DNA of 64,000 nt from an uncultured bacterium (GTDB taxonomy: Bacteria > Hydrothermota > UBA3072). The stretch covers positions 8,311 through 72,310 of the forward strand of contig CAZSEX010000004.1 of assembly GCA_964606065.1 (NCBI GenBank), written 5' to 3'. Made by a program: the position numbers and the translations under genes. Of this stretch, positions 37,937-64,000 are shown in pieces. The notes beneath the pieces were generated by a model. The model did not search any database and was not told the DNA's origin. It worked only from the letters and a program-made list of their open reading frames with translations. Position 1 is the stretch's first letter, and every line of letters starts with the position of its first letter.

Positions 37937-37951
37937 GGTTAGGAGTAGAAG

Positions 37952-39037: not shown

Positions 39038-39064
39038 TAGGAGATAACAGACAAAGTGCTGCAC

Positions 39065-39090: not shown

Positions 39091-39123
39091 ATACTTCAAA
39101 ATTAACACACAAGGAGCTTAAAA

Positions 39124-40341
39124 ATGACAGATGAAAAAGATCTTGAAATTGTAGCTGCAGGTCATACCTGCCTTGATTTAATACCGGCTTTCACAATCGA
39201 GGGGACAGTTGATAGGATGACTGATGTCCTTGTACCCGGTAAAATGATAGACATGGGTGAATGTGTGGTTGTGGGAGGTGGCCCTGTCACCAACGCCGGA
39301 GTATCTATAAGGAGACTCGGTGTCAAGACTGAACTAATAGGCAAAATTGGTGACGATGATTTTGGAAAACAGATTCTTCGGTGGTATGAAGAACATGAAG
39401 GGCATTTTAAAGGAATTAAAATGGTCGAAGGTGAATCTACATCTTATACAATAGCGATTTGTATTCCCGGAATAGACCGTTTTTATCTTCATCATTGCGG
39501 AGCCAATGATACTTTTGGCTATGAAGATATGGATTTTGATATCGTGGAACGTTCAAAACTTATGCTTTTCGGATATCCGCCGTGGATGAAGAAACTTTAC
39601 AGCAACACAGGAGCGGAATTGACTAAAATACTTAAAAAGACAAGAGAATTAGGAACAACGATAGCTCTGGACCTTTCTCTTCCTGATGTCGACGGTTACG
39701 CCGAAAATATAGATTGGTTTTCTATTATGGAAAATTGGATTCCTCTTTCTGATATTATGGTACCCAGCGCGGAAGAGATTTTTTACTTTTTATACAAAGA
39801 TAAGTTCCTTGAAAAGAGGAGAAGTCTAAAAGAGAGAGAAACGGTTCTCGACAATATGAGTGTGAAAGAGATTTCTGACATTGGTAAAGATTTAATTAAA
39901 ATGGGTACGGCAATAGCGATGGTAAAATGCGGGCACAGAGGATTGTATGTGCGAACCGCCGGCAAGGAACGTCTGAGCAAATTAGGAGCGGCAGGATGTT
40001 CAGACCTCGATAACTGGGCTAACCGTGAACTCTGGTTTCCTGTTTACGAAGAGGAAAAATTCGTGGGTGCTCTCGGTTCAGGCGATTCCGCTATTGCAGG
40101 ATTCCTTTCCGCTTTTGTGTGGAATCATTCAGTCGAATCCTGTTTAAGGTATGCTAACGCTGCCGGCAGCATGAATGTTACCGTCCCCGATGGTCTTACC
40201 TGGAATAAAGGATTTGAAGATCTTACGAGGCGAATCGAAGCGGGCTGGAAGACAAGAGAATTGAAAATCGATGAAGATGGTTGGAAATTTGAAAAAGGGT
40301 TCTGGGTGGGACCTGATAACAGCGGTAAATGGGAATCATAA
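39124..40341 (+). CDS. PfkB/ribokinase-family carbohydrate kinase
   Basis: GGGPVTNAG...RRLG...GKIGDDDFG and C-terminal GALGSGDSAIAGFL. Confidence 0.88.
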   Translation: MTDEKDLEIVAAGHTCLDLIPAFTIEGTVDRMTDVLVPGKMIDMGECVVVGGGPVTNAGVSIRRLGVKTELIGKIGDDDFGKQILRWYEEHEGHFKGIKMVEGESTSYTIAICIPGIDRFYLHHCGANDTFGYEDMDFDIVERSKLMLFGYPPWMKKLYSNTGAELTKILKKTRELGTTIALDLSLPDVDGYAENIDWFSIMENWIPLSDIMVPSAEEIFYFLYKDKFLEKRRSLKERETVLDNMSVKEISDIGKDLIKMGTAIAMVKCGHRGLYVRTAGKERLSKLGAAGCSDLDNWANRELWFPVYEEEKFVGALGSGDSAIAGFLSAFVWNHSVESCLRYANAAGSMNVTVPDGLTWNKGFEDLTRRIEAGWKTRELKIDEDGWKFEKGFWVGPDNSGKWES

Positions 40342-40363
40342 AATACTAAATGAGGAGGTAAGA

Positions 40364-42187: not shown

Positions 42188-42199
42188 GGAGGATATTAT

Positions 42200-46601: not shown

Positions 46602-46706
46602 GTGAATTTTAAGGCATTTTTAAGAACGTTCGGAAATGGTTTTTTGTTATGTAAAATTGTTTTAACTTATTGTTTTTTAACCCTTAATAAAAGGAGGTTT
46701 TCATGA
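46602..46706 (+). CDS. Possible 34-aa leader ORF overlapping the TBDR2 start
   Basis: GTG start, VNFKAFLRTFGNGFLLCKIVLTYCFLTLNKRRFS, TGA overlaps the TBDR ATG (ATGA), AAAGGAGG at 46581. Confidence 0.3.
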   Translation: MNFKAFLRTFGNGFLLCKIVLTYCFLTLNKRRFS

Positions 46707-49700
46707 AAAGAGCGGGAAGAGAATTGTCGTTCAGGTGGATTTTGTTTAGCTTGCTTTGGTTTGCAGCTTTTTTTATGGTTATCCAGAATGCGGAAGCAGC
46801 AATTACCGGAAAAATTGCTGGTGTCGTTGTGGATGAGAGAACAGGTGAACCGTTACCCGGTGCCAACGTTATAGTTGAGGGTACTGACAGAGGAGCTGCC
46901 TGTGACGCTGACGGTTATTATTACATAATAAGATTGGAACCGGGAACCTATAACGTTCAGGCGAGGATGATGGGATATACCAGCGTTACAAAGGCGGGTG
47001 TTAGAGTCATTTCCGATCATACCACTCCGCTTGATTTTAAATTGACGCCGACGGTAGTGGAAGGAGAAGGAGTGACGATTCAAGCTGAAAGGGAAGTTAT
47101 CAAGATGGATCTTTCTTCCAGTTCTTTCGCTGCGGATAAAAGTGAAATAGAGGCTGTCCCTCTTATCGAAGACGTGAAACAATATTTGAACTTTCAGGCC
47201 GGAATAGCAGGCTGGAGTGTTAGGGGCGGCAGTCAAGGTGAGACCAAATTGCTGGCTGATGGTTTGCTTCTTGTCGACCAGAGATCAAATGAACCTATCA
47301 TGATGCCCAATCTGAGCGAGATAAAAGAGGTTCGTGTGATGAAAGGAGGCTTTAACGCGGAATACGCGAATGTTCGTTCGGGTATTATAAACGTTGTAAC
47401 CAGAGAAGGTTCTCCCGATAAATACGAAGGTTCATTCGAGTTCAGATATACTCCGGGTTATCAAAAGCATAAAGGTAGAACGATCTTTGACCCCGATAAT
47501 TATCATAACGCATTGTATTTATGGAACAAGTTAGATACTGGTTATTTGAATCCTATATTAGATACGTCAGGTAATATTATTTCATATGAAGATACGGTTG
47601 TTGGATATGACAGCGTTTGCTGGAAAGGCTCCGGCAAGGTATGGGGAGATCCAACCAGTCCGTTTTACGATACGGTTAAATATAACAATTATGGAGAGTT
47701 CAGAGGATGGATACGGCTGGTAGGAAGAGACACGACTACTACTCCTGAAATGCAGCGTGATAAATTTCTGTGGATGCGCCGTATTAATACACCAAGAACA
47801 GATTCTCTCTTATTGATTTATAATGGTGGTGATTCCATATACGTCCCGGTTTATGAGAATGATTCATTAACCGGATATAAAAAGGTTGCTTATGATTTTA
47901 GTGATCAAGACAGGACCGGCGAATACGGTCAACTGCCGGATTGGACACTGGACGCCGGCTTTGGTGGTCCCATTCCTATTATTAGCAGTTATTTGGGTGA
48001 TATGACATTTTATACTTCTTACAGGGATCATAATGAAACATTCGCTATCCCGGACAGCAGGGATTATTACAGGGAACGCCAGACGAGTTTAAAGTTGACT
48101 TCTCGTTTTGGCGATTTAAAGGCGAGTATTAAGGGTGTCTACTCGATTATTAATTCCCTCTCTCCGTTCGGCGAGGGTCACAGGTGGGAAGGGGAATATT
48201 CCCAGGGGTTAACCGGACAGGTATACCTCCGAGACGGTTCGGATATGCTATTTGGAATCGGGGATTATGATGGAAGATGGCACGGCAGTAATAAATTGAG
48301 CCTTGATCAGCTGTACAAAGCAAATGCGTTAACCCCGTTCGATATTACTTCCAGAATGTACGGTCTCGCGCTTCAGCATGCGTTGAGCGAGAATACTTTT
48401 TATGATCTGCATTTGACTTATATACGCAGTGGGAATGACGCTAAATACAATTTTGATGTGCCGACTCGTATGATGGGAGATACAGTAGTACTTTGGTTTT
48501 CAGATATTGTTGGACAAACCGAACATGCTGTGGATGATGTCCCATTTGGATGGGCCGACCCTCGATATGAAAACAACTATGGATATGATGAGACTGGCGA
48601 AGCACAATTTGGGTTTTCTCATCAATGCGGAACCTGGAATACTTCCTGGTCGCAGACCTATAGCGCGAGGTTTGATATGAGTTCGCAGATAAATAAGTAC
48701 AACCTGATAAAAGGCGGTCTTTCGTTTCAATATGATAAACTGCACGAGTTTTATATCACCAATGAGGGATGGTTCTGGCCGGAACCCGGAGAAAGAGACC
48801 ATAGTGAGGGATATTATTTTAACTATGACGCGTATCCTATCCTTGCGGGTGGTTATATTCAGGATAAAATTGAATTCGAAGGGATGTTTGGAAATATTGG
48901 TATGAGGTTTGATTACTCGGACCCGAATACCGAATGGCCGACGACTGAAGACAGATATTCGATGTTTTTCTCCAAATATCTTAAAGATTCTTTGTTTACT
49001 CAGGGTCCTGTAGAAGACGTAAGTCCTCACTTTGCGATAAGTCCACGACTCGGAATTTCATTCCCGATATTGGAAAGAAGCAAGTTGTTCTTCAATTACG
49101 GACATTTTTACTCCCTGCCGAACAACGAGGACAGGTATAAAATCGACTGGGGTAAGGAGACTGAAAATATTCATTTCCTGGGGAATCCGCGTCTTGAGAT
49201 GGAGAGAACTGTTTCTTATGAGGTGGGTCTTGAAAGCGGTATAGCCAACACTTATATGGCAAGGGTTTCAGGTTACTATAAAGATGTAGATAATGAAGCT
49301 GGTGAGATTGGATATTATGGGCTTGAAGGTTTATATGTTGATTATACGACGATGGAAAATACCGGCTACGGTGATATAAGGGGTTTTGAAATTGAGTTCA
49401 GGAAAGACCATGGAAGGTTTTTTACAGGATGGATAAATTATGATTACATGGTGCACACATCAGGAAACATCGGGATAACGCAGCATTATGAGGAACCGCT
49501 TTTAGAGTCAAGAGAAACAGAGGTGGACCCAAAGGAAGATAGTCCCGTTCCGAGACCCGTTTTCAGGACTTTACTCACATTAAAGACGCCTCAGGATTGG
49601 GGAATATTTTTGGGCGGTTATAATCTTTCATTCTTATATCAATGGAGAGCGGGATATTATGATACCCATAATCCTTATGGAGACGATTTGGAAGATGCGT

Positions 49701-50089
49701 TGCAGAACAATATCCAGTGGCCTTCTACGCGCATTCTTGATATGAGTATAAACAAGAGTCTTTCGGTCGGGGGTATTACAGCCAATCTGTTTGTGGAAGT
49801 GCACAATGTTTTTGACTGGCAGACTTTAAATTCTCAGGGTTTTGACCCCACGATACCTAAGAATGGGGACCGGGTTGCATATTTAAATTCACTTCATCTC
49901 GAGATTTATGATAAAGAACCTTTTCTGGCAGATGAGTCGATGAAGGGTCCTGAAGAACTTGGAGTTGAGCCGGATCACATTGGAGATTTGCGAAGCGAAG
50001 ATAAACCGTATATAAATAATCCGAATAGAGAATTTCTGTATTACCTTGATCCCAGATATGTGCAGTTTGGAATAAGGTTCTCTTTTTAG
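46703..50089 (+). CDS. TonB-dependent receptor 2 (paralogue of TBDR1)
   Basis: Same architecture and C-terminus PRYVQFGIRFSF. Confidence 0.9.
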   Translation: MKRAGRELSFRWILFSLLWFAAFFMVIQNAEAAITGKIAGVVVDERTGEPLPGANVIVEGTDRGAACDADGYYYIIRLEPGTYNVQARMMGYTSVTKAGVRVISDHTTPLDFKLTPTVVEGEGVTIQAEREVIKMDLSSSSFAADKSEIEAVPLIEDVKQYLNFQAGIAGWSVRGGSQGETKLLADGLLLVDQRSNEPIMMPNLSEIKEVRVMKGGFNAEYANVRSGIINVVTREGSPDKYEGSFEFRYTPGYQKHKGRTIFDPDNYHNALYLWNKLDTGYLNPILDTSGNIISYEDTVVGYDSVCWKGSGKVWGDPTSPFYDTVKYNNYGEFRGWIRLVGRDTTTTPEMQRDKFLWMRRINTPRTDSLLLIYNGGDSIYVPVYENDSLTGYKKVAYDFSDQDRTGEYGQLPDWTLDAGFGGPIPIISSYLGDMTFYTSYRDHNETFAIPDSRDYYRERQTSLKLTSRFGDLKASIKGVYSIINSLSPFGEGHRWEGEYSQGLTGQVYLRDGSDMLFGIGDYDGRWHGSNKLSLDQLYKANALTPFDITSRMYGLALQHALSENTFYDLHLTYIRSGNDAKYNFDVPTRMMGDTVVLWFSDIVGQTEHAVDDVPFGWADPRYENNYGYDETGEAQFGFSHQCGTWNTSWSQTYSARFDMSSQINKYNLIKGGLSFQYDKLHEFYITNEGWFWPEPGERDHSEGYYFNYDAYPILAGGYIQDKIEFEGMFGNIGMRFDYSDPNTEWPTTEDRYSMFFSKYLKDSLFTQGPVEDVSPHFAISPRLGISFPILERSKLFFNYGHFYSLPNNEDRYKIDWGKETENIHFLGNPRLEMERTVSYEVGLESGIANTYMARVSGYYKDVDNEAGEIGYYGLEGLYVDYTTMENTGYGDIRGFEIEFRKDHGRFFTGWINYDYMVHTSGNIGITQHYEEPLLESRETEVDPKEDSPVPRPVFRTLLTLKTPQDWGIFLGGYNLSFLYQWRAGYYDTHNPYGDDLEDALQNNIQWPSTRILDMSINKSLSVGGITANLFVEVHNVFDWQTLNSQGFDPTIPKNGDRVAYLNSLHLEIYDKEPFLADESMKGPEELGVEPDHIGDLRSEDKPYINNPNREFLYYLDPRYVQFGIRFSF

Positions 50090-50112
50090 AAGGTAAAGGA
50101 GGTTATTGAAAA

Positions 50113-52458
50113 ATGAAACAGAGGAAGTTATTAATATTAATTTTTCTTCTGGCTTTTTTCTGGGTGAGTGGTGTTCATGCTCAGATTGCTACAATGGTCA
50201 AAGTGGGAAAAATGGAAGCCAGGATATTTGACCACGGCTGTCAGAGCAATGATCTTTATCAAAATGGTATGATTCGCTACTTTAGAGGTAGTTACATTAG
50301 AGAGGAGGATGCGTTTGAAAGCCCGTATCAACAGCAGATTCTTGGGGATGCCGGAATGCTTTTTGGTGCTCGAAACTGGGTGGATGCAACCGGACATAAA
50401 TGGGACGCTTTTGTCACTGGACATGGTGCTCGTTTACGTGGAGAGGAAAGCGAATCTTATCAATTTGCCGTTCCGGATGAAGAAGGGTATTCCGTACGAA
50501 GATATATGAGATATCCTCTTCCAAAGATATTTGTAGATGGAGTAGAAACCGGAGATCCGTTTCCTATGTCGGGAGATGATGTGGCGCCCGAGAAAGTATG
50601 GGGAACCGCCGATATAATGGTTGAGTCCAATGTCAGATTTAATATCGGTGTGGATGCCAAACAGAGGGTGTTAGCCTGGAGTCAGCCGGGGCATGATGAT
50701 TATGTAATATGGGATTGGACATTTGTAAACACGGGAAATGTCAATTTAGATGATAATATCGAGCTTCCGGAGCAGGCATTGGAGGATGTTTATATTAACA
50801 GAATTACCGAGACTATGGTAAACGGGACCGGGGATAATAAAGTATTTCCTACTTTTTCAGGAACAACAGAAGATCAGGACACAAGGCTTTCCTATCCCCA
50901 GGATGATGACTCTCTTCGGATTGATTATGTCACTCCTCTTAGAACAGATGAGACGAGTGATACTTACGGTCTCAACCCTTCAGTTGGTGTGTCGAATATT
51001 TTGACCGGATCTCGTTTTGCGGGTTCAGCGACTTTGTTTGCCCCTAAATCATGCGATGTTCCGCAGTTACCAAATACTCCTGCCAGTAATGACCCGGCTC
51101 AGCCGTCTATGCATACGAGTCTCTTAGCTGAGCCCAGCTGGATGTTGTTGCACAATGGGATATTGGCTGATTTTCCCGCAATGACACCCCAGGAATTCGT
51201 TGATGCTTATGAAATTATGAAGAAGGGTGTATTTGGTATTGATCCGGAAGAAGTTAACTATCAGAAAACTTATCCTATGGATAGTGTTTATGATGTTTAC
51301 GATACTACCGCCAGCGGTGCACCCACTTATTATGAACAACCCGTGGATAGATGGGGAGAGTTGGACCCGGATAGGGGATACAGATATGCCTCGGAAATTC
51401 CTTCTACCATTATCAGGTGGGACCAGCAGTGTCATTTTTCCATAGGTCCATACCAGATGGAATTCGGAGACACTCTGAGGTTTGTATATGCTTATGTGGC
51501 TGGTGCCATAAATAGGAAAGCTTCATATCTCGCCGGTGAGGCCTGGAATAATGGTAACGCTGCTTCTTACGGCTGGCTGGCAGAGATGGATTCGGCTGAA
51601 ATGGTTGAAGAGTTAAAGAAAAGGGATCCTATATTCGATGTTTTTTTTGATATCGGAGAGTTAACTCCCGTATCTTCGCTTAATGATATAGCGAAAGACC
51701 TGTTGGTGGCAACAGGGAGAGATTCTCTCTTCAATAACGGCATGAACGCGCAGAGAAACTTTAATATGGATTATGACATACCCGAATCTCCCGCGCCTCC
51801 TTCCGTTTTTAATGTTACTTCACGTCCCGATATGATAAAGCTGACATGGAGTTATCAGTCTGATTTTGGTAATTATAAACCTTCGAATCTTGCAAAGTTT
51901 AGAATCTACAGAGCTTTAGGAGGTTATGTATATGAAAAACAGGGAGAGATTGTTACGGGTGACTGGCAAGTGATCGACTCTGTCGGTGCGAACGATACCT
52001 TATATGAGGATACGAGTGTTACTCCGACTGTTGATTATTACTACGCGATTACAGCTGTAAGCAATTCGGGAGTTGAAAGCGGAATGTTTTTAACAATGAC
52101 CAAATTAGCGGCGAATTTACAAAGTCATCCAGGTACCGATCTCAATGCCGTTAGAGTTGTTCCAAATCCTTTAAATGTAAATTCTTCGGCACGTACGAGA
52201 TACAGCGAGGGAGGGGGATTAAAATTAGCCTTTGTCAAACTGCCTGGTGAATGCACAATTACTATATTGACAGAATCGGGAAATCTGGTGACCACCATTG
52301 AGCATAAAAACGGAAGCGGAACAGAAACGTGGGAACCAAAGAATCAACAATTTCTTCTTACGGATTCCGATCAGCTGCCTGCGAGTGGAATTTATATTGC
52401 TCATATAACGACTCCTGAGGGCAAACATGTTTCTCGCAAGTTCGTAATAATAAGATAA
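50113..52458 (+). CDS. Secreted TBDR partner protein 2 with Fn3-like and T9SS-type C-terminal domains
   Basis: Paralogue of 28315-30651, ending ASGIYIAHI...KFVIIR. Confidence 0.72.
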   Translation: MKQRKLLILIFLLAFFWVSGVHAQIATMVKVGKMEARIFDHGCQSNDLYQNGMIRYFRGSYIREEDAFESPYQQQILGDAGMLFGARNWVDATGHKWDAFVTGHGARLRGEESESYQFAVPDEEGYSVRRYMRYPLPKIFVDGVETGDPFPMSGDDVAPEKVWGTADIMVESNVRFNIGVDAKQRVLAWSQPGHDDYVIWDWTFVNTGNVNLDDNIELPEQALEDVYINRITETMVNGTGDNKVFPTFSGTTEDQDTRLSYPQDDDSLRIDYVTPLRTDETSDTYGLNPSVGVSNILTGSRFAGSATLFAPKSCDVPQLPNTPASNDPAQPSMHTSLLAEPSWMLLHNGILADFPAMTPQEFVDAYEIMKKGVFGIDPEEVNYQKTYPMDSVYDVYDTTASGAPTYYEQPVDRWGELDPDRGYRYASEIPSTIIRWDQQCHFSIGPYQMEFGDTLRFVYAYVAGAINRKASYLAGEAWNNGNAASYGWLAEMDSAEMVEELKKRDPIFDVFFDIGELTPVSSLNDIAKDLLVATGRDSLFNNGMNAQRNFNMDYDIPESPAPPSVFNVTSRPDMIKLTWSYQSDFGNYKPSNLAKFRIYRALGGYVYEKQGEIVTGDWQVIDSVGANDTLYEDTSVTPTVDYYYAITAVSNSGVESGMFLTMTKLAANLQSHPGTDLNAVRVVPNPLNVNSSARTRYSEGGGLKLAFVKLPGECTITILTESGNLVTTIEHKNGSGTETWEPKNQQFLLTDSDQLPASGIYIAHITTPEGKHVSRKFVIIR

Positions 52459-52471
52459 AGGGGAGGAAAGA

Positions 52472-53449
52472 ATGAAGAAATTTTTTATTATAGCTCTATT
52501 AACTGTTTTTTCGATTAATGCTTACTCGAGCAAAAAAGTCGCCCAGACAGGAGGCGGGTTTTTGGATGTTGGTGAGGGAGCACGGGCTTGCGGAATGGGA
52601 GAAGCATTTACTGTATTAGGGCAAGATGCTACCTCTCTTTTCTATAATCCCGCGGGTATAGGAGAAATCGATGCCGGTTTTGATTTGTCGACCGGCGGAA
52701 CGCAGTGGATAGCAGATATTCAGTATCTTTATCTATCTGGGGTTTTAAATGCAGGGGTGTGGGGAAATTTCGGTTTTAGCCTTATAGCTCCCGATTATGG
52801 TGATTTTTACGGCACCATAGTTACTGAAGGCGGAGCAGGCTATGCGGAGACTGATACCTTTGGTGTTAAGGCGTTTTGCGGGGGTGTAGCTTACGCCAGA
52901 GAATTCACCGACAAATTTACGGTAGGTCTTCAAGTTAAATATGTTTCCCAGTATCTGGGACAAAATGAAAAAGGAGATAGTATAGGGGGTTATTATAAGG
53001 AAGACAACTATGTTTGGACCCTTGCTTATGATTTCGGTTTGCTTTTCGCCCCCGGCTTTAAAAGTTTTGCTTTCGGTATGTCCGTTAGAAATTTCTCCCC
53101 CAGGGTGACTTACGAATTAGTGGGTTTTGAATTGCCTTTAACCTTTGCTCTTGGCGTGGGTATGGATGTTCTGGATCTTTTCGGGGAATATGAAGATTAT
53201 TCGTTTAATATAGGCGCCGAAATGCTGCATCCGCGTGACTGGGACGAACAGTATCATGTGGGAGGAGAACTCTCGTTTAAAAATATGCTTTTTCTGCGAG
53301 CTGGTTATAAATTCAACTATTTCGCGGAGGGTTTAAACGCCGGGGTTGGCATTAGTGTTGGGGGAGTGAAAATCGATTATTCTTACAGTGAATTCGATTT
53401 AACGGGTATAGACATGGTTAATAGAGTCTCCGCCGGATTCGCTTTTTAG
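52472..53449 (+). CDS. PorV/PorQ-family outer-membrane beta-barrel 2
   Basis: KVAQTG...GARACGMGEAF...LFYNPAG, C-terminal Phe. Paralogue of 30665-31639. Confidence 0.82.
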   Translation: MKKFFIIALLTVFSINAYSSKKVAQTGGGFLDVGEGARACGMGEAFTVLGQDATSLFYNPAGIGEIDAGFDLSTGGTQWIADIQYLYLSGVLNAGVWGNFGFSLIAPDYGDFYGTIVTEGGAGYAETDTFGVKAFCGGVAYAREFTDKFTVGLQVKYVSQYLGQNEKGDSIGGYYKEDNYVWTLAYDFGLLFAPGFKSFAFGMSVRNFSPRVTYELVGFELPLTFALGVGMDVLDLFGEYEDYSFNIGAEMLHPRDWDEQYHVGGELSFKNMLFLRAGYKFNYFAEGLNAGVGISVGGVKIDYSYSEFDLTGIDMVNRVSAGFAF

Positions 53450-53568: not shown

Positions 53569-55839
53569 CTAAGACCGATATTCCTTTCTTAGTTCTTCTG
53601 CCGCTTCTACCATATTCCGAAGCGAGGGAATGACTTCTTCCCAATTTCTGGTTTTTAACCCGCAGTCGGGATTTACCCAGAGGTTTTTTAAAGGGATTAC
53701 TTCTATCGCTTTTTTAATTAGGTTTTTTATCTCTTCCTTAGAGGGTATTCGGGGGCTGTGAATGTCGTAAACTCCGGGTCCTATCTGATTCGGATATTGG
53801 AAATCTTTGAAAGCTTTCAAGAGTTCCATTTTTGAACGACTCGCTTCGATACTTATTACATCCGCATCCATTTTAGCTATCCATTCTATAATATCGTTGA
53901 ATTCACTGTAACACATGTGAGTGTGCATTTGAGTTTCGTCTTTAACGCTGGATGTCGCGAGACGGAAGCAATCGATTGCCCATCGTAAATATGTTTTCCA
54001 ATCTTTTTTTCTTAAAGGGAGACCTTCTCTCATCGCGGGTTCATCCACCTGGATTATTTTTATCCCGTTTTCTTCCAATTCCGCGATTTCTTCTCTTAAA
54101 ACAAGCGAGATCTGCTTGCAGGTTTCGCTTTTGGGTTGGTCGTCGCGGACAAAACTCCAGCAGAGAACTGTTACCGGACCGGTCAACATTCCTTTCATTG
54201 GTTTTTTTGTTAAGGACTGTGCGTATTTTATCCAATCTACTGTCATTGGTTTCGGGCGCGTTACATCACCGTAAAGAATTGGTGGTTTTACACAGCGTGT
54301 TCCATAACTCTGTACCCAGCCGTTTTTTGTGAAGCAAAAACCTTTTAACTGTTCACCGAAGTATTCCACCATATCGTTTCTTTCAGGTTCGCCGTGAACA
54401 AGAACGTCCAGTTCGAGTTTTTCCTGCTTATCTACAATTTCCTTTATAAAGTTTTTCATGTTTCTCTTGTAGTCTTCTTCTGAAATTTGCGTTTTTTTGA
54501 ATTCTGAGCGTACTTTTCGAATTTCTTTTGTTTGTGGGAAAGAACCGATAGTTGTTGTCGGCAGTAAAGGTAATTTTAAATTTTCATTCTGCTTTTTTAT
54601 GCGTTCCCTAAATGGCGATTTTCTTGTAAACATTTCTTTTGATACGTTTTTTAAACTATTTTGAACATTTCTGTTTGTAACTAAAGGGCTTTCTTTTCTC
54701 GATTGTAGAGCTTCTTTATTTAGCTTTAATTCATTTGAAATATCTTTTCCGATAGCAGCGTCGCGGATTATTTCTAATTCCTGGCATTTTTGTTTCGCGA
54801 AAGCCATCCAGTTTTTTATTTCAGGGTTCAGTCCGGTTTCTTCATCCAGGTCGACAGGTACATGTAGAAGAGAACAGGATGGAGCCACCATTGTACGTTC
54901 ATTACCGACTGCTTTTGTCGCTTTTCCTACGATATTCGCAGCTTTCTCGAGATTTGTTTTCCATATGTTTCTTCCGTTTACTACCCCCAGAGAAAGTATT
55001 TTATCCGGACCAGTATTTGCCAGTACCGAGTCCAACTGTTGAGGAGTTCTGACTAAATCCAGATGTATTCCGGATACAGGCAGGGAGAAAACGAGATCTT
55101 CGTTAAAACCGAGTTCTCCGAAATAAGTGGCAAGAAGTATTTTCAAATGTCCCGCTGCTCCTTTTAATCTATAATAAGTTTCTTTGAAATGATTTTTAAT
55201 TTCTACGCTCAGGTCGAGAACCAGTATGGGTTCATCCAGCTGTATCCAATCACAAGAGCTTGAAAGACGGGATAGGATTTCTTCATAAACTTTCAATACC
55301 GAATCTAAATGTTCAAAACGATCGAATACTTCTTCGGTTTCTTTTCCAAGGAATATGTACGTTAGGGGTCCCACAAGTACAGGCTTTACGTTAAACCCTT
55401 CATCGATCGCTTCTTTTGTTTCTTCGAAAATCTTTTCGCTTGAAAGTTTAAAAGTTTGATCGGGTGAGAATTCCGGAACTATGTAATGATAATTTGTGTC
55501 GAACCACTTGGTCATTTCCATCGCACCGGCGCTTCCTTTTCCTCTTGCCATGGCGAAATAGGTCTCTAAGTCGACTTTTTCTCCTTCAAAATTAAAACGT
55601 TCGGGTACCGCTCCTAAAGTCGCTGTCATATCGAGAATATGATCGTAAAACGAAAAATCTCCAGCGGGAACGAGATCGATACCATTTTCTTTCTGTAATT
55701 GCCAGTGACGTATTCTTAAATCTTTTGCAACACTCCGAAGTTCTTCTTCGGAAACTGTTCCTTTCCAGTAACCTTCGATTGCCGTTTTTAATTCTCTTTT
55801 AACACCTATTCTCGGGAATCCTAACGTATGAGTAATCAT
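53569..55839 (-). CDS. metE: Cobalamin-independent methionine synthase
   Basis: HTLGFPRIG..RELK, EMTKWFDTNYHY, PTTTIGSFPQT, HGEPERNDMVEYF, HTHMCYSEF, WVNPDCGLKTR. Confidence 0.97.
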   Translation of the reverse strand: MITHTLGFPRIGVKRELKTAIEGYWKGTVSEEELRSVAKDLRIRHWQLQKENGIDLVPAGDFSFYDHILDMTATLGAVPERFNFEGEKVDLETYFAMARGKGSAGAMEMTKWFDTNYHYIVPEFSPDQTFKLSSEKIFEETKEAIDEGFNVKPVLVGPLTYIFLGKETEEVFDRFEHLDSVLKVYEEILSRLSSSCDWIQLDEPILVLDLSVEIKNHFKETYYRLKGAAGHLKILLATYFGELGFNEDLVFSLPVSGIHLDLVRTPQQLDSVLANTGPDKILSLGVVNGRNIWKTNLEKAANIVGKATKAVGNERTMVAPSCSLLHVPVDLDEETGLNPEIKNWMAFAKQKCQELEIIRDAAIGKDISNELKLNKEALQSRKESPLVTNRNVQNSLKNVSKEMFTRKSPFRERIKKQNENLKLPLLPTTTIGSFPQTKEIRKVRSEFKKTQISEEDYKRNMKNFIKEIVDKQEKLELDVLVHGEPERNDMVEYFGEQLKGFCFTKNGWVQSYGTRCVKPPILYGDVTRPKPMTVDWIKYAQSLTKKPMKGMLTGPVTVLCWSFVRDDQPKSETCKQISLVLREEIAELEENGIKIIQVDEPAMREGLPLRKKDWKTYLRWAIDCFRLATSSVKDETQMHTHMCYSEFNDIIEWIAKMDADVISIEASRSKMELLKAFKDFQYPNQIGPGVYDIHSPRIPSKEEIKNLIKKAIEVIPLKNLWVNPDCGLKTRNWEEVIPSLRNMVEAAEELRKEYRS

Positions 55840-57353: not shown

Positions 57354-58316
57354 TCACTTTGCTTTTTGAATCTCGAGTTTTTTGCGGTTTTCGCGTGAGA
57401 GGAATATGAAAACAATACCCCCTATGCAGCTCGTTATAACGGAGGAGAAAAAGAAAACGAGAGACAACGACATAGCCTGTCCTTCATTTATACCGGTGGA
57501 AGAAAGGAAATAAACGTAAGCCGCTTCTCTTAAACCTAAACCGTTAATGGTTAAAGGAATCAAGCTTATCACAGTTATAATGGGTATATATGTAATCAAA
57601 GCGAAGATAGGGATCGAGTTTGATAATCCTCTGGCTATGAGGTAATTAATTATGATTATAATCGTCTGAACAAGGACCGAGTAGCCTATTCCAATCAATA
57701 ATATTCTTTTTTTGTTTTTATATATTTTAAACGCTCTATAAAATTTCCTCATGGAATCGCCTAAATTGAAAAGTTTGATTGATAATAATTTTTCTTTTAA
57801 CCATGCGATTTTTAAAGAAATGAAGAAATAATATATCATTATGGTTATTAAAATTAGTCCTGTATAAAGAATAGAAAATTTTGCAAACTTTACTTGTCCC
57901 GAAAATACAGCTAAAATTCCTATTGTCATCATTCCTATCATTCCGAGAATCCTCTCCATTATGGATGTACCCAGCGCTTTTTCAAAATTTTCTTTTCCAC
58001 CAGCATATGCAGACCGGACCAAATCCATTCCCAAACCGCTTGGCAGGAAATTATTAAAGAAAAAGGAAACAAGTATGTATAAATAGCTCTTAGAACGGGA
58101 AATGTCTATTTTTTGAGCTTTAAGCAGGAAATTCCAGCGCAATGAAAAGATTAAATAATAAAGAAGAAAAAAAAGGATGATTATAATAAAGTAAAAAATA
58201 TTTAAGTTTTTTATATTCTGTATTACTTCATTTAGGGGTACTTTTGTTTTAAAAAGATAATAGAAAAGTCCGATTGTTATCAGAAGTTTCAGGGTTTCTA
58301 CGCTTATTTTTTTCAT
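57354..58316 (-). CDS. Lysylphosphatidylglycerol-synthase-TM / flippase-like (UPF0104) membrane protein
   Basis: SLRWNFLL, FFNNFLPSGLGMDLVR, ERILG, SLIPLTINGLGLREAA. Confidence 0.85.
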   Translation of the reverse strand: MKKISVETLKLLITIGLFYYLFKTKVPLNEVIQNIKNLNIFYFIIIILFFLLYYLIFSLRWNFLLKAQKIDISRSKSYLYILVSFFFNNFLPSGLGMDLVRSAYAGGKENFEKALGTSIMERILGMIGMMTIGILAVFSGQVKFAKFSILYTGLILITIMIYYFFISLKIAWLKEKLLSIKLFNLGDSMRKFYRAFKIYKNKKRILLIGIGYSVLVQTIIIIINYLIARGLSNSIPIFALITYIPIITVISLIPLTINGLGLREAAYVYFLSSTGINEGQAMSLSLVFFFSSVITSCIGGIVFIFLSRENRKKLEIQKAK

Positions 58317-58407
58317 ATCTTTAAGATATTAATATGGGTGAGAATGTCAAGATTTTAAACTCTTGACAATTAAGAGGTTTGTTGATAATTTAATAATAGA
58401 TAAACGA

Positions 58408-61400
58408 ATGGAAGCGAACGATACGGTTAAAGAATATATAGATAAATTAGAGAATTTATCTAAAGATACGATATCTCTTTGGAATCGGCTTTCAAGCAAA
58501 CAGATAGAATCAGCTGAAAAGTTAACGGAGATAAGGAAAATGTTAAAGAACTTATACGCTTCCATGTATGTTATTTACGAAGGCTCGGATTCTTTCAGGA
58601 CAACCGTTAGGAAAAGTGAAGAATTATTGTCTTTTGGGCTTAGTTTAATAAATGAGGTTATGAATAGAATTCACTTATTCAATGACAGTACGGTTACTTT
58701 GAGCCAAAAATTGGATGATTTAATAAGTAAAAAGGAAGAAATCAACGCGATTGTTTCAAATCTACAGGAACTTAATGAAACTTCAGGAAATACTGCCCGA
58801 AACGCCGAAATTAAAGCTTATCAAGCCGGAACTTCAGGTAAAGGCTTTGAAGTCGTAGCCGAGGAGTTAGGTCGCTTAACAGGAAAATCGTTGGAAATTG
58901 TCGGTGAGATGGTAAAGAGACTTGAGTCTCTCAAGGAACGATCGAAAGAAGCCACGGATAGATTTAAAAACATTAGAGAAAACCTTTCTAATTTTATCGG
59001 AAACGCAGATGATTTAAAACAAAGTTCTGACGGAGTGCGAGATAAAATTTCTCTCGTTATGGAAATTTCCGATAAGTTATTGAATTTACTTGACGATATC
59101 GACATCAAGAGACGCGATGTTGAGGAAACAGCCAGCTTTTTACTTTCTTTCTCCAGAAATACTCTTTTGAAGTTAGGAGAAATAGACCTTCTCCTTGATC
59201 AAAGGGAAACCATGATAGAAATTTTAAAAAACCACATCGATATTTTTAATTTCCTGGCAGAAAATGGTATGGGTTTTTTGCCTGAAAATATTTCGCAGAT
59301 AGATTTTTCTTTGAAGAAAGTTGGCGACCTCGATCGATATAGCCAGCTTGGTGTCTTAACGTTAAATTCCGCTCCGATCCGTAGCAATTTTGATTTATCA
59401 GAATTAGATGGCATGAGAAAAATGTTGGGTATGATAGGAAGAGAGATCGAGGGAGTAAAGGAAATTATTAAAGAAACCCGGTATCAGGCAAATCTATGTT
59501 TAAACAATATTAAGAATGTTCAAACTTTTATAGAAAAAGAAGCAAAAGGTATAGAAGAAGTAACAAATATGCAAGTAAATTTATCGAGGATTTCTTCTGG
59601 ATTAGGTAGATTGGTTGAAAATGCGGTAGATTTTGCCGAGCAGTTGCGGGTAATTTCTCTTTACGGAAAAATAGAAGCCTCCAGAGTGCCGCGTGATATT
59701 AAAGGTCTTTCGGCAATTGTTGATGAAATGCGAAGTCTTTCCAGTGATTATTCTAAATTGGGCGATAAGTTGTGGCGGTTTTTTAAACCGGTCAATGATA
59801 ATATCGAAGATTTAAGAAGGACGACACTGGCAATTAGTAATACTACAAGCAGATTGATGGATATTGTTAACGAGAGCCAAGTTGCGTTCCAGGAGAACAA
59901 AGATCAAATTGAAACACTGACGGACGTTTCTTCCGGTATTCGTCCCTTTATTGATAAACAGGAAGATGTTGTAGGGGAAATAAATAATTCCTTTAAATCT
60001 GTAATAGAAGCCTTGAAAGATTACAAAAAAGTAACTGATGAACTTGAAAAGAGACTTGATAGAGAGAGAAACCTGACTGAAAATCTCATGCAGGATCATA
60101 ATTGGAAAGATTTGAACAATTTTGAAATTGTAAAAAAGGAAGAGGAGTCGATTTTAACTGTGTATTCCCGGGAAATTCCACGTTCTTTACATCCTTGTGG
60201 ATTTGGAGAACCGGATGCGAGTGAAATTGTTTACCTTATGCATAGAGGACTTTTTGATTCGGATTTTTCGGGACGAGTTTATCCTTTAATAACGGAAAGA
60301 TGGGAATTATCGGAAGATGCCAGAAATTGGGATTTTACGATAAGAAATGATGTTAAAAATCATAAAGGGAAGAAAATAGAATGCGAGGATATTAAATTTA
60401 CACTTGAAAACTTGAAGGAAAAGGATAAAATAAAAGATTTATTGATGATTGATGAAATAGATATTAAGGGTAAATATTCCTTGTCTGTTAAATTAAACGG
60501 AATTAATATGTCCTTTCTTTCTAATTTAGCCAGAGTCACTTCATCGGTACTTACTAAAGATTACGACGAAGAAGGTATAGTTGGTATAGGACCATTTAAG
60601 TTGAAGAACATGGAAAAGGGAGAAAAAATAGTGGTAGAATCTTATCCGGATTATTTTGCCGGTAAACCTTATTTATCGAAAGTTATCTTTAGAACCGGGA
60701 CGGATCCCGTAGAAGAGTTCAGAAACGGTTTAGTCGATGTGGCGAGAGTTTCCCCGGATAATATTTCCGCTATTAAAACTGACAGGGACCTGAGTAAAGA
60801 TTTGTTTTCATCCCTTGGTTTAAATGTTAATTACCTCGGTTTCAACTTCAATATGAATGATCTTCCTTTTATGGATAAAAAAGTTCGGCAGGCGTTAAAT
60901 TACGCGGTAGATAGAGAAGCTATTATAGATGAGACTTCTTCGGGTTTTGGTGAAATCTTAAAAGGAATATTTCCAACAGGATTTGACACATATAAATCTA
61001 CAGTAGAAAGGTATGAATATAGTAAGGATATAGCAAAGAGATTGCTGTCCGAAGCGGGTTTTGACGGAGGTTTGCCCGGAACATACACTATTTCTGTTTA
61101 TGATGCTCCTTGTATGGTTAAAAGAGCCGAGGTAATAAAGGAGACTTTTTCTCGTGTAGGTGTTAACTTGAAAATCGAAAAAAATCCCTGGGACAGGTTC
61201 ATAAAGAAGGTTCGGGGAGGAAAGGTACAATTGTTCCTTACAAAATATTTTCCCGAAAGCACCGAAGTGGCTGACTATTTATATAATCTTTTTCATAGTT
61301 CTCGAGCCGGTAAGGAAAATCTAACGTTTTATTCAAACAAAGCTCTTGATGGCAAACTAAAAGAGGGACTTGAGGAAACGAATCCCATCAGAAGAAAGAA

Positions 61401-61554
61401 AATATATCAGGAAACTGAGAATTTAATATTGGAAGATGCCCCGCTGATTTTTTTGGTTCAGGATTTCAATTTTTTGTTGGTTAGTGATAGGGTTTTTGGT
61501 TTTAAAATGGGTCCGATGAATCGTTTTCATTATGAGTGGATTGGAGTTAAATAA
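58408..61554 (+). CDS. Soluble chemoreceptor: two MCP signalling domains fused to a C-terminal family-5 solute-binding domain
   Basis: Hairpin tips NAEIKAYQAGTSGKGFEVVAEELGRL and YGKIEASRV...GLSAIVDEMRSLS. SBP5 motifs GIGPFKL, YFAGKPYL..VIF, YLGFN, KKVRQALNYAVDRE. No TM segment seen. TTG 58363 is part of a TTGACA promoter, so ATG 58408 is preferred. Confidence 0.8.
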   Translation: MEANDTVKEYIDKLENLSKDTISLWNRLSSKQIESAEKLTEIRKMLKNLYASMYVIYEGSDSFRTTVRKSEELLSFGLSLINEVMNRIHLFNDSTVTLSQKLDDLISKKEEINAIVSNLQELNETSGNTARNAEIKAYQAGTSGKGFEVVAEELGRLTGKSLEIVGEMVKRLESLKERSKEATDRFKNIRENLSNFIGNADDLKQSSDGVRDKISLVMEISDKLLNLLDDIDIKRRDVEETASFLLSFSRNTLLKLGEIDLLLDQRETMIEILKNHIDIFNFLAENGMGFLPENISQIDFSLKKVGDLDRYSQLGVLTLNSAPIRSNFDLSELDGMRKMLGMIGREIEGVKEIIKETRYQANLCLNNIKNVQTFIEKEAKGIEEVTNMQVNLSRISSGLGRLVENAVDFAEQLRVISLYGKIEASRVPRDIKGLSAIVDEMRSLSSDYSKLGDKLWRFFKPVNDNIEDLRRTTLAISNTTSRLMDIVNESQVAFQENKDQIETLTDVSSGIRPFIDKQEDVVGEINNSFKSVIEALKDYKKVTDELEKRLDRERNLTENLMQDHNWKDLNNFEIVKKEEESILTVYSREIPRSLHPCGFGEPDASEIVYLMHRGLFDSDFSGRVYPLITERWELSEDARNWDFTIRNDVKNHKGKKIECEDIKFTLENLKEKDKIKDLLMIDEIDIKGKYSLSVKLNGINMSFLSNLARVTSSVLTKDYDEEGIVGIGPFKLKNMEKGEKIVVESYPDYFAGKPYLSKVIFRTGTDPVEEFRNGLVDVARVSPDNISAIKTDRDLSKDLFSSLGLNVNYLGFNFNMNDLPFMDKKVRQALNYAVDREAIIDETSSGFGEILKGIFPTGFDTYKSTVERYEYSKDIAKRLLSEAGFDGGLPGTYTISVYDAPCMVKRAEVIKETFSRVGVNLKIEKNPWDRFIKKVRGGKVQLFLTKYFPESTEVADYLYNLFHSSRAGKENLTFYSNKALDGKLKEGLEETNPIRRKKIYQETENLILEDAPLIFLVQDFNFLLVSDRVFGFKMGPMNRFHYEWIGVK

Positions 61555-61955
61555 TGGAATTTTTGAGTTTTACTTTAGAAGATAAATTTTTTGGAGTACC
61601 GTTGGAAAATGTCAAAGAAATTGTTGAAGAAACGGGAATAACTCCAGTACCTTTGTCTGATGATTGTCTTGAAGGAGTAATGAACCTCCGTGGAGAGCCA
61701 GTTCCTGTGATAAATCTAAGAAAAAAAATACGACTGAAAGGTGCTTCGACATCAAGAGAAATTATACTCTGTCTGATAAATGGCGTGAAAATAGGTTTGA
61801 GACCTGATAGAGTTCTGGATATTCACCAGATTTCCGATCCGGAAATTAAAAAGGTGCCTTCCGGTTTAAAAGGAGAAATAGAATCGAAATATATGAAAGG
61901 AATTGTAAAATTGAAAGAAAAGTATATAATTATTGATATAAAAGAATTAATTTGA
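61554..61955 (+). CDS. cheW: Chemotaxis coupling protein
   Basis: FFGVPLENVKEI...PVPLS...GVMNLRGEPVPVINLR, GL.PDRV.DI. Confidence 0.92.
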   Translation: MEFLSFTLEDKFFGVPLENVKEIVEETGITPVPLSDDCLEGVMNLRGEPVPVINLRKKIRLKGASTSREIILCLINGVKIGLRPDRVLDIHQISDPEIKKVPSGLKGEIESKYMKGIVKLKEKYIIIDIKELI

Positions 61956-61970
61956 TGTAAGGAGGAAAAA

Positions 61971-62336
61971 ATGAGCGCAAGGATTTTAGTAGTAGATGAT
62001 GCAATATTTATGCGAAAGATGTTGGCGGACATACTTCAAAAAGGTGGTTATGAGATTTGTGATGAGGCGGGTAACGGTAATGAAGCTGTTCAGAAATACG
62101 AGAAGAATAAACCGGATCTTGTTACAATGGATATAATAATGCCTGATATGAGCGGAATAGAGGCAATTAAAAAGATAAAAGAGTTAGATTCGGACGCTAA
62201 AATTGTTGTTGTAAGTGCGATGGGTCACCAGAGTCTGGTGGTCGAAGCTATCCAGGCCGGAGCAAAAGACTACGTAGTTAAACCTTTTCAACCTTCACGA
62301 GTTATAGAAGCGGTTCAGAGGGTTTTAAAATTGTAG
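61971..62336 (+). CDS. cheY: Chemotaxis response regulator
   Basis: ILVVDDAIFMR, PDLVTMDIIMP, SAMG, DYVVKPF. Confidence 0.95.
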   Translation: MSARILVVDDAIFMRKMLADILQKGGYEICDEAGNGNEAVQKYEKNKPDLVTMDIIMPDMSGIEAIKKIKELDSDAKIVVVSAMGHQSLVVEAIQAGAKDYVVKPFQPSRVIEAVQRVLKL

Positions 62337-62345
62337 AATTGTTTT

Positions 62346-64000
62346 ATGGATGAACAGAGAAAAGAGTATATAAAACTATTTAAAGAAGAGAGCAGCGAAT
62401 ACTTAGATAAACTGAATAAAATAATAGTTGAACTCGAGAAAAATCCTGGTAACAAGAAAATAATTGCGGAGGTTTACAGGATTTTTCACACTTTGAAAGG
62501 AATGGCAGCTTCACTTGGTTATACTGAAATAGAAACCATTTCGCATGACCTTGAAGGAAAAATGGAAATTTTCAAAGAGGAGGAAAAAAGAAGTGTCGAT
62601 TCGGAAGTCATCGATGAGGTTTTTAAGAGTATAGACAAAATAGAGAGTCTTTTAGAGGCACTGGAGATTTCAGGGGAAATCGGGGACAAGACGAAAGTGG
62701 AAGTTGGCAGCATTCCTTATGTCGAAATTTTGCTTAAAGAGGATGTATCTCTTCCGGCTGCGAGAGCGGCCGTGATTATTCAAAGGATAGAAGAAAAGAC
62801 AAAAATTAAGGGGCTGGATCCAACCTATGAGGAGATAAAATCCGGTAATATCGGAAGAATATTAAAGGTTCGTTGTTCCGAACCTGAAAAGATTATAGAT
62901 TTAGTTGGTTCGTTTGACGAAGTTGAGGAGGTAAAACTCGCGGATAAAAAAAGCTCAGAAAAAACATCTTCAGCTGGTATAGAAGGGATAAGAGTCAACG
63001 TGAATATGCTGGACAGAATGCAGAATCTCGTGGGTGAATTGGTGGTTACCACCTCTCAATTGTCGGAAATTATCAGAAGTTTTGGTGAGGAAAAATTTGA
63101 AGGGGTTCTTGACCTTCACAATAGAAGCGTAAAAGAGTTACAGGAAGTTATTACCAAAGTAAGATTGGTTCCTCTATCGTTGATTTTCGATAAGTTTCCT
63201 CGATATGCCAGAGATTTAAGCAGAAAATTGGGGAAAGAAGTAAATATTGAGATTTTCGGAGCGGATATAGAAGTTGATCGATCTCTTCTTGAGGGTATCA
63301 GTGATCCATTGATTCATCTTATTAGAAATTCGATTTCGCATGGCATTGAATTGCCGGAGGAAAGGGAGAAAATAGGTAAACACAGAGAAGGGAAAATAAC
63401 TGTTTCGGCGAAAAGCATAAAGGGCGATATATTGATACAAATAAGTGATGACGGGAAGGGGATTGACGAAAAGGAAGTACTACTCGTTGCTTTCAAGAGA
63501 GGTTTGGTTGAGGAAGAAGAAATGGAATCACTTTCTAAAGCTGAAATACTAAGATTTTTATTTACGCCGGGATTTACCACTAAAGAAAAAGCGGATAAGG
63601 TTTCCGGACGGGGTGTCGGTCTGGATGTGGTCAGAAAACTTGTTCGCTCCGTAGGAGGGAGTGTAAATATAAACACAGAAAAAAACAGAGGTACTACAGT
63701 ATCGATGAAGATGCCTCTTTCGATGTCGATAATTAAAGTTTATCTGCTCGGTTTAAATAACCAATTGTTTGCATTACCGATGACTTTTGTGGATGAGACG
63801 TTAACAATTTCAAGAAATAGTATTTCATATCTTATGGGAAAAGAAGTAATGTTGCTTAGGAGAGAAATACTTCCGGTTTATCATCTTGCTCATATTCTGG
63901 GACAACCTTCTTCAAGTAACGGGAATCAGAATTCGCCGTGTGTTGTTATTGAGGTTGAGAATGATCGTTTCGCAATTGTAGGTGGAACTTTCAAAGGAAG
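62346..64000 (+). CDS. cheA: Chemotaxis histidine kinase, truncated by the window edge
   Basis: Not in the ORF track. Manual reading gives MDEQRKEYIKLFKEES...FHTLKGMA (Hpt), HLIRNSISHGIE, DDGKGID, FTPGFTTKE...SGRGVGLDVV. Confidence 0.93.
   Translation, partial: MDEQRKEYIKLFKEESSEYLDKLNKIIVELEKNPGNKKIIAEVYRIFHTLKGMAASLGYTEIETISHDLEGKMEIFKEEEKRSVDSEVIDEVFKSIDKIESLLEALEISGEIGDKTKVEVGSIPYVEILLKEDVSLPAARAAVIIQRIEEKTKIKGLDPTYEEIKSGNIGRILKVRCSEPEKIIDLVGSFDEVEEVKLADKKSSEKTSSAGIEGIRVNVNMLDRMQNLVGELVVTTSQLSEIIRSFGEEKFEGVLDLHNRSVKELQEVITKVRLVPLSLIFDKFPRYARDLSRKLGKEVNIEIFGADIEVDRSLLEGISDPLIHLIRNSISHGIELPEEREKIGKHREGKITVSAKSIKGDILIQISDDGKGIDEKEVLLVAFKRGLVEEEEMESLSKAEILRFLFTPGFTTKEKADKVSGRGVGLDVVRKLVRSVGGSVNINTEKNRGTTVSMKMPLSMSIIKVYLLGLNNQLFALPMTFVDETLTISRNSISYLMGKEVMLLRREILPVYHLAHILGQPSSSNGNQNSPCVVIEVENDRFAIVGGTFKG

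Follow-up and report, generated by a model that had tools for sequence, protein, structure and literature searches.

A conserved, putatively cytoplasmic chemoreceptor that joins two signalling hairpins to a complete family-5 solute-binding domain

The receptor and its domains

A stretch of 64,000 nucleotides from an uncultured bacterium of the Hydrothermota (lineage UBA3072; GenBank assembly GCA_964606065.1, contig CAZSEX010000004.1, positions 8,311 to 72,310 of the forward strand; this whole stretch is referred to below as the window) contains a gene whose product combines two tandem signalling hairpins of the methyl-accepting chemotaxis protein (MCP) type with a C-terminal solute-binding protein (SBP) domain, and that is followed immediately by cheW, cheY and cheA. 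The corresponding open reading frame, which ends at 61554 on the + strand, may begin either at TTG 58363 or at ATG 58408; the latter is the start common to most homologues (MEANDTVKEY..., 1048 residues), and is the one from which the residues of this protein, termed here the receptor, are numbered. Its parts are listed below, with helix boundaries taken from DSSP assignments on an AlphaFold2 model.

58408..61554, + strand: receptor gene, 1048 residues and a TAA stop; two MCP hairpins, linker and family-5 SBP domain
58411..59265, + strand: signalling hairpin 1, residues 2-286; helices 2-139 and 141-286
58783..58866, + strand: tip 1, residues 126-153, S..ARNAEI....AG..G.GF..VA.E, invariant family-wide; canonical C-arm half including the Phe
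59266..59442, + strand: inter-hairpin junction, residues 287-345, variable, with Gly/Pro; helix breaks at 287-290 and 322-330
59278..60093, + strand: signalling hairpin 2, residues 291-562; helices 291-321, 331-425 and 434-562
59647..59742, + strand: tip 2, residues 414-445, R..SLYGKIEASR.......L..IV.EM..LS; canonical N-arm half, with GRGF replaced by KGL
60094..60150, + strand: linker from hairpin 2 to the SBP domain, residues 563-581 (19 residues), with indels
60151..61551, + strand: complete family-5 (cluster C) SBP domain, residues 582-1048

Both hairpins display recognisable similarity to MCP signalling domains. The Pfam MCPsignal model (PF00015, cut-off 34.6 bits) matches residues 100-220 of hairpin 1 with 40.7 bits when that hairpin is scored alone, and residues ~379-532 of hairpin 2 with 32.1 bits alone, just below the cut-off, the score for the entire receptor being 59.1 bits. 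A family profile, constructed from the N-terminal 580 residues of eight family members, matched the cytoplasmic domain of TM1143 from Thermotoga maritima (2ch7/3ja6) with 78-80 bits and an E-value of ~1e-21 across 207 residues without a gap, and hairpin 2 can therefore be regarded as a genuine MCP domain; the profile matches of hairpin 1 included Tsr (1qu7), PcaY (6s18) and Aer. Furthermore, the two halves of this region are homologous to one another, and their alignment brings the tips into register (hhalign probability 92.5%, E 5e-7, 214 columns).

The AlphaFold2 model, which was built with 34 homologues (mean pLDDT 85.8, pTM 0.70), contains the hairpin of long antiparallel helices, joined by a conserved U-turn, that is a trait of the MCP family, and the residues at that turn are invariant; it also displays a short break at residues 287-290, a loop at tip 2 (residues 426-433) and an alpha/beta domain at residues 582-1048. 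The receptor belongs to the MCP signalling-domain family, with the caveat that methylation adaptation was sought in the gene cluster and was not found; the methylation site of TM1143 (IEEQN) aligns with IDKQE in the receptor. Between the hairpins, the junction is the least conserved of the helical segments, with a mean column identity of 0.59.

Complementary signalling tips

The two tips were compared with the canonical MCP tip consensus (QTNLLALNAAIEAARAGE.GRGFAVVA.EVR.LA) and with the tip of TM1143, and each was found to retain a different half of the motif. Tip 1 shares 17 of 40 residues with TM1143, mostly in the C-arm half (AG..GxGF.VVA.E), and tip 2 shares 13 of 40, mostly in the N-arm half (AEQ..L..IEA.R); the corresponding values for the two tips of a double-MCP protein similar to DosM of Vibrio cholerae were 32/40 and 24/40, with identities spread over both halves. 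The N-arm helix of an MCP tip is the one that binds CheW and the P5 domain in solved complexes. This complementary loss of motif halves is seen across the receptor family (P0019-P0255).

The tips are also the most conserved segments of the receptor, with mean column identities of 0.86 (tip 1) and 0.76 (tip 2). The residues that are invariant at tip 1 are S126, A130-I135, A140, G141, G144, G146, F147, V150, A151 and E153, and those at tip 2 are L418, Y419, I422, E423, R426, I437, V438, L444 and S445. Because the highest conservation and most of the invariant residues of the receptor are located there, both tips are under constraint rather than decaying, and the complementary pattern of loss suggests either sub-functionalisation of the two tips or their pairing in a folded-back pseudo-dimer.

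A complete solute-binding domain on a variable linker

The C-terminal domain corresponds to an entire family-5 SBP. The Pfam model SBP_bac_5 (PF00496) matches residues 624-968 with 228 bits, covering 366 of its 368 positions, and Foldseek superposes the modelled domain on whole family-5 SBPs (5u4o, GbpA 3m8u, DppA, AppA, NikZ and AgaA) with target-normalised TM-scores of 0.80-0.86; because the superposition extends over entire solved structures, the binding domain is complete. The solved structures closest to it in sequence are GbpA/HbpA, an SBP from Bacillus anthracis, DppA and AgaA. The model lies at a root-mean-square deviation of 2.7-2.8 A from liganded GbpA and DppA, and of 4.5-5.0 A from open DppA and MppA, and as a model it resembles the closed rather than the open form. 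The domain belongs to the family-5 fold family, yet it lacks the contextual features of that family, namely an export signal and transporter partners: no genes for an ATP-binding cassette (ABC) permease or ATPase partner were found around the receptor gene in the window or in the syntenic loci of relatives.

Some features of the binding pocket can be assessed by alignment to Escherichia coli DppA (mature numbering), in which Asp408 holds the amino group of a bound peptide and Arg355 holds its carboxylate. The residues equivalent to Asp408, Trp405 and Arg355 in the receptor are E950, Y947 and D899, respectively. Among 49 family members, the position of Asp408 is occupied by Asp or Glu in 46, and that of Trp405 by Trp in 46, while the position of Arg355 is Asp or Asn in most. 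The Trp-x-x-Asp/Glu motif, a hallmark of the binding of peptides or amines, thus appears to be kept. A cryo-electron microscopy entry exists for a charge-swap DppA (R383D+D436R, precursor numbering), consistent with the importance of those residues.

The assignment of a specific ligand was considered and rejected, since the ligands of the top structural neighbours range over glutathione, peptides, nickel-histidine, opines and sugars. Among stand-alone SBPs, the nearest are only 27-31% identical and carry generic annotation, from which no ligand can be inferred, and family-5 SBPs overall display no clear ligand preference (PMC10443332).

The linker that joins this domain to hairpin 2 has the lowest mean column identity of all segments (0.47, the remainder being at 0.65-0.86 except for the junction). 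Its variability and its indels favour a tethered docking of the SBP domain over a rigid, piston-like coupling.

Cellular location

A scan of the receptor sequence revealed no signal peptide, lipobox or transmembrane segment. Its highest Kyte-Doolittle hydropathy over 19 residues is 1.45, at a position within the SBP core; an N-terminal hydrophobic segment is absent from all 49 family members, and a segment above 1.7 occurs in only one of them, within the variable junction, with none in the other 48. The SBP domain is itself preceded by 580 residues of cytoplasmic coiled coil. Judged by sequence, the receptor is a cytoplasmic protein. An earlier note on this DNA, prepared from its letters alone, had described a soluble protein lacking a membrane helix or signal peptide, in which two separate MCP hairpins with divergent tips precede a complete C-terminal domain of the DppA/OppA/NikA type; each part of that description is upheld by the results above, and the N-terminal membrane or export signal that the note had named as evidence to the contrary is not present in the receptor.

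Integrity of the fusion and distribution of the family

The fusion of MCP and SBP domains in a single chain is real, and is not an artefact of assembly, because independent contigs are identical across it and ~50 homologous protein clusters share the same architecture. The contigs come from two independent salt-marsh assemblies: one (depth 35) spans positions 58300-61937 and agrees with the window at every base, with 0 gaps, and the other, from a second run, bridges the MCP/SBP junction, where the contigs of both runs are identical. Throughout the family, receptor lengths are 1040-1140 residues and the frame is uninterrupted. The stop or frameshift between the MCP and SBP parts that the earlier note had foreseen as fatal to its reading was therefore found neither in the independent contigs nor in the homologous clusters.

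The family comprises ~35 clusters at 90% identity, of ~1048 residues and the same architecture, that are 76% to 26% identical to the receptor, and an exhaustive profile search added ~15 more distant clusters (at 50% clustering) of 1048-1137 residues. Pfam analysis of six of these ~15 distant clusters identified two MCPsignal domains and SBP_bac_5 in each, and the total of ~50 protein clusters thus keeps the full-length architecture from 76% down to ~25% identity. The named source lineages are candidate division WOR-3 and Candidatus Edwardsbacteria. A word-indexed search with the N-terminal 580 residues gave no more than a weak MCP and two incomplete members of the family, and the exhaustive profile search was needed to reach proteins resembling DosM. 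No description of a fusion of MCP and SBP_bac_5 domains was found in the searchable literature, and the literature on motility in WOR-3 was uninformative.

The operon and its probable output

The receptor gene is the first of an operon, as the earlier note had proposed and as Pfam assignments of the downstream genes bear out. Its TAA stop (61552-61554) and the ATG of cheW (61554-61556) overlap by a single base (TAATG), again in agreement with that note, and the + strand shows no terminator-like site from 58200 to 62500. Upstream lies a divergent intergenic region in which only weak sigma-70-like matches were found by a promoter scan. The neighbouring features are as follows.

57354-58316, - strand: gene for an LPG-synthase-like membrane protein, divergent, upstream of the receptor
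58317..58407, no strand assigned: presumed promoter region of the operon, between the LPG-synthase-like gene and the receptor
61554..61955, + strand: cheW, 133 residues, a single CheW domain
61971..62336, + strand: cheY, 121 residues, receiver domain only
62346..64000, + strand: cheA, cut by the end of the window; Hpt-P2-dimerisation-HATPase-CheW

The continuation of this cluster can be followed in relatives, where the gene order is receptor-CheW-CheY-CheA-CheC/X-TPR-PATAN-TPR/Roadblock-Roadblock-Roadblock. In one such locus (L004) the full-length CheA has 601 residues, and the genes after cheA occupy positions 15726-21496; the products of the relatives' genes are a CheC/CheX-type phosphatase of 205 residues, a TPR protein of ~880 residues, a PATAN (DUF4388) protein, a protein with TPR and Roadblock domains, and two small Roadblock/LC7-like proteins. 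This synteny is strict in L001, L003-L009, L016, L017 and L020, as far as the sequence of each extends and down to a receptor identity of 26%, and TamB is the next gene in the two loci in which a following gene is annotated. Neither the window nor the fetched loci of the family contain another MCP gene, and CheB and CheR are absent from the cluster at every locus examined.

The components of this cluster diverge at very different rates. Among close loci (L001-L009, compared with L004) no gene of the cluster evolves faster than that of the receptor, with 68-80% identity, whereas CheY (95-98%) and CheC/X (93-99%) are nearly fixed, so that change is much more rapid in the sensor than in the relay to which it is joined. 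In the explanation preferred here, the receptor is dedicated to a Che-type phosphorelay and is the one input to it that the cluster encodes.

A non-flagellar output, acting on polarity or surface motility, is the most economical inference, because the co-encoded genes include PATAN and Roadblock proteins and the window contains no flagellar genes in its remaining length. MglB-type Roadblock proteins are GTPase-activating proteins of the polarity GTPase MglA; no gene for an MglA-like GTPase was seen in the cluster of relatives. PATAN-domain genes repeatedly adjoin MglA/MglB genes (PMC4316618), and PATAN proteins of Synechocystis are reported to act on the motor of type IV pili (bioRxiv 2021.06.11.447907).

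Proposed mechanism and alternative explanations

The reading that is preferred here, at somewhat better than even confidence, is that the receptor is a ligand-sensing chemoreceptor of the cytoplasm, in which a tethered SBP domain controls CheA, a design that would probably allow the cell to be guided by an intracellular molecule. Sensing of a cytoplasmic ligand by such a domain is plausible by analogy, because the transcription regulators SgrR and DsvR provide a precedent and because the acidic residue of the pocket is retained. In the mechanism that is inferred for this protein, as regards ligand binding and ligand class, coupling, array geometry and output, the two MCP hairpins (~20 nm each) would supply the part that binds CheW and CheA and controls the kinase, and the SBP sensor would hang by its flexible linker of ~19 residues from the end of the last helix. 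The SBP would close on a small cytoplasmic molecule, most likely one with a free amino group (a peptide or an amine), and in its closed form would dock on, or release, the adjacent helical bundle, altering the autophosphorylation of CheA; such an event would be the intramolecular counterpart of the action of ligand-loaded DppA on the chemoreceptor Tap. Phosphorylated CheY would then act on the co-encoded TPR, PATAN and Roadblock/LC7 proteins rather than on a flagellar switch, and would be reset by the CheC/X phosphatase, there being no adaptation by CheB/CheR methylation in the cluster.

Several points weigh against this proposal. The classical dipeptide binding mode appears not to be conserved, because the equivalent of Arg355 is Asp or Asn. 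Both tips depart from the canonical consensus for CheW/CheA binding, and control of the kinase is assumed from the context of the operon. The output module lies beyond the window, and is predicted from synteny with relatives that are 26-76% identical. A distant member from Edwardsbacteria (P0171, 1137 residues; L019, 3203-6616) has the same architecture as the rest of the family and adjoins no che gene, the downstream genes being those for RNase PH and an FtsY-like protein. Finally, 98% of the homologues of DosM have been reported to be scaffolds that lack a sensor (PMC9321776).

That last point leads to the main rival explanation, which is disfavoured and is considered unlikely, although it is the most serious of those weighed here: that the protein is a scaffold of the DosM kind, a rod that bridges two baseplates, in which the SBP fold serves as a module for protein-protein contact or lattice spacing (for example, as a docking site for TPR or PATAN proteins) and signals originate from receptors encoded elsewhere. 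DosM does span two baseplates, and the formation of arrays requires it (PMC7534058), and most of its homologues are sensor-less; the N-terminal 580 residues of the receptor are collinear with double-MCPsignal proteins, one of which (P0183) is encoded in an F9-type cluster, with a closely similar distance between tips (290 versus 300 residues), and the Arg355 equivalent of the DppA pocket is lost. Set against this, a mere spacer would hardly be expected to persist, down to ~25% identity, as a complete two-lobed SBP of ~470 residues with its Trp-x-x-Asp/Glu motif; no second MCP is encoded in the cluster, which lacks the F9 hallmarks CheW3, CheB and CheR; and half of the canonical motif is lost at each tip, whereas both tips of DosM are canonical. 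These three considerations are the reason that the scaffold is disfavoured, and the Gly/Pro breaks of the junction, which set it apart from that of DosM-like proteins, also speak against it.

A further possibility, which is rated as quite improbable, is that the N-terminal region is a degenerate coiled-coil adaptor that exerts no control over CheA, and acts as a long tether that localises an SBP-like domain while CheA is regulated by other means. The low identities of the tips to TM1143, the sub-threshold score of the second MCPsignal domain when taken alone and the absence of CheB and CheR from the cluster would all fit such a loss of function, but no part of the protein is better conserved than the tips, which have invariant residues family-wide; tip 1 still possesses the Phe of its G-x-G-F motif, and tip 2 its IEA.R motif; and translational coupling links the gene to cheW, with the order cheW-cheY-cheA preserved in all but one of the contexts examined. 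An artefact or mis-localisation, in which separate MCP and SBP genes were wrongly joined or in which the protein is exported and its SBP is periplasmic, is so improbable as to be negligible and is refuted at the sequence level: the contigs of two runs agree over the junction and ~50 clusters are uninterrupted there, the export and membrane signals are missing, and the MCP hairpins must meet CheA and CheW in the cytoplasm.

Within the preferred reading of a ligand-sensing chemoreceptor, the arrangement of the two hairpins can be envisaged in more than one way. The complementarity of the tips, together with a junction that resembles a hinge, hints that the hairpins may fold back on one another into a pseudo-dimeric four-helix bundle made of a single chain, the SBP being at its distal end, where a sensor is usually placed, an idea that is put forward tentatively and seems rather less probable than its alternatives taken together; the chain could instead form an extended rod across two baseplates, as DosM does. 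If the pseudo-dimer is correct, the two tips would rebuild one canonical and one specialised face, and the protein would represent an asymmetric receptor 'dimer' made of one chain, in which an internalised transporter SBP drives a polarity module that runs from Che proteins to PATAN and Roadblock: in effect a new chemosensory class, in a phylum without cultured members.

The remainder of the window

The rest of the window shows an organism that is saccharolytic and that has type IX secretion cargo. Two large proteins, at 1159-3414 (- strand) and 9485-12061 (- strand), carry sorting domains of that secretion system (Por_Secre_tail/CHU_C), from which the presence of its cargo follows. A glycan utilisation island at 31742-44782 contains three tandem MFS_2 sugar transporter paralogues (475, 474 and 474 residues) together with glycoside hydrolases of families 43 (beta-xylosidase-like), 10 (a xylanase), 3 and 116 (GH43, GH10, GH3 and GH116) and a PfkB kinase, and a GH9 enzyme with a CelD_N domain is encoded separately at 5169-7673 on the - strand. 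Two paralogous triads, at 24832-31639 and 46703-53449, each comprise an outer-membrane protein of ~1130-1150 residues with a CarboxypepD_reg domain, a protein of ~780 residues without a Pfam match and a PorV-like protein of ~325 residues, and may constitute the SusC/D-like uptake unit of this lineage.

A set of genes for a corrinoid-dependent methyltransferase is divided between 21380-24290 and 44904-46409; two URO-D-like genes (MtaA/MtbA-type) flank that for a B12-binding protein, and a reductive activator of the RACo type lies ~20 kb away. Neither an Rfam family at gathering score nor a tRNA gene was found anywhere in the 64-kb window (1-64000), and no Rfam match was obtained even upstream of a MetE-like gene (53569-55839, - strand), a place at which one could have anticipated a riboswitch.

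Comparison with known systems

SBPs usually stimulate chemoreceptors indirectly, from across the periplasm, and double receptors of the DosM type have been regarded as scaffolds that lack a sensor. The family described here unites both ideas, in the form of a double-hairpin cytoplasmic receptor that carries its own complete SBP. As a soluble protein encoded in a compact operon, it offers a tractable case in which to examine the control of an MCP bundle by a Venus-flytrap domain, taxis on an internal metabolite, and the link between Che proteins and PATAN and Roadblock proteins, as well as a functional handle on the behaviour of WOR-3 and related uncultured saccharolytic bacteria. It also provides a warning regarding annotation, in that members of the family are currently named 'ABC transporter substrate-binding protein' or 'hypothetical' in the databases.

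Tandem MCP domains are an already known type, represented by DosM of the F9 systems, a point that the earlier note had missed. DosM of V. cholerae (VC1403) has two signalling domains, and is seen by cryo-electron tomography as an elongated rod that has one tip in each of two CheA/CheW baseplates (PMC7534058). Together with a triple-domain CheW, it forms the signature of F9 systems (PMC9321776), and a search of the supplement to that study for sensor domains in DosM homologues found none. The N-terminal part of the receptor is of the same type: it is a single soluble chain with two tandem MCP signalling domains and no transmembrane region, and its collinearity extends to many double-MCPsignal proteins of ~630-655 residues (in one example, profile positions 78-562 align with residues 119-616 of a DosM-like protein). 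The distance from tip to tip, which is exactly 300 residues in nine DosM-like proteins, is 288-307 in the members of the receptor family examined, except for P0171 (327). In the F9-type cluster of Azospirillum soli, which contains the double-MCP protein mentioned above, the gene order is CheY-CheC-[double MCP]-CheW (519 residues)-CheB-HEAT-CheR-CheY-CheA, so that a CheC-type phosphatase is common to both clusters.

The differences from DosM and from F9 systems are equally clear. The receptor adds a C-terminal SBP sensor of 470 residues; its tips are complementarily degenerate, whereas both halves of the motif are kept in both tips of DosM-like proteins; and its junction contains Gly/Pro breaks, where that of DosM-like proteins is compatible with a continuous helix. 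Its gene cluster encodes a single-domain CheW of 133 residues, lacks CheW3, CheB, CheR and HEAT, and in relatives runs on into TPR, PATAN and Roadblock genes. The receptor is therefore DosM-like in architecture while its cluster does not conform to the F9 type.

Other signalling proteins resemble the receptor in the placement or in the nature of the sensor. TlpD of Helicobacter pylori is likewise a cytoplasmic MCP with a sensor situated after the signalling domain, but it has one hairpin rather than two, and that sensor is a small zinc-binding CZB domain rather than an SBP fold. SgrR and DsvR share with the receptor a cytoplasmic, C-terminal SBP_bac_5 sensor within a signalling protein; their output is the binding of DNA through a helix-turn-helix domain, whereas Pfam and NCBIfam searches found no such domain in the receptor, the N-terminus of which consists of MCP hairpins. 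Scored against NCBIfam-type models, the SBP domain reaches 163 bits for Opp4A and 135 bits for DppA, and a weak 24 bits for SgrR; because it is so much closer to transporter SBPs than to SgrR, its recruitment was independent of that regulator.

The closest parallel in logic is provided by Tap and DppA of E. coli (and also by Tar with MBP, and Trg with GBP and RBP), in which a ligand-loaded SBP, of family 5 in the case of DppA, feeds a chemoreceptor (PMC8050422). DppA, which is among the closest solved structures to the SBP of the receptor, is a separate periplasmic protein that is shared with an ABC transporter and docks on a periplasmic four-helix bundle; the SBP of the receptor, by contrast, is fused, C-terminal and predicted to be cytoplasmic, and has no transporter genes nearby, although the action of a closed SBP on a helical bundle is likely to follow the same logic. 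Placed among these systems, the receptor family is a conserved and uncharacterised one, the architecture of which is a novel variant that combines the known DosM-type receptor with an SBP.

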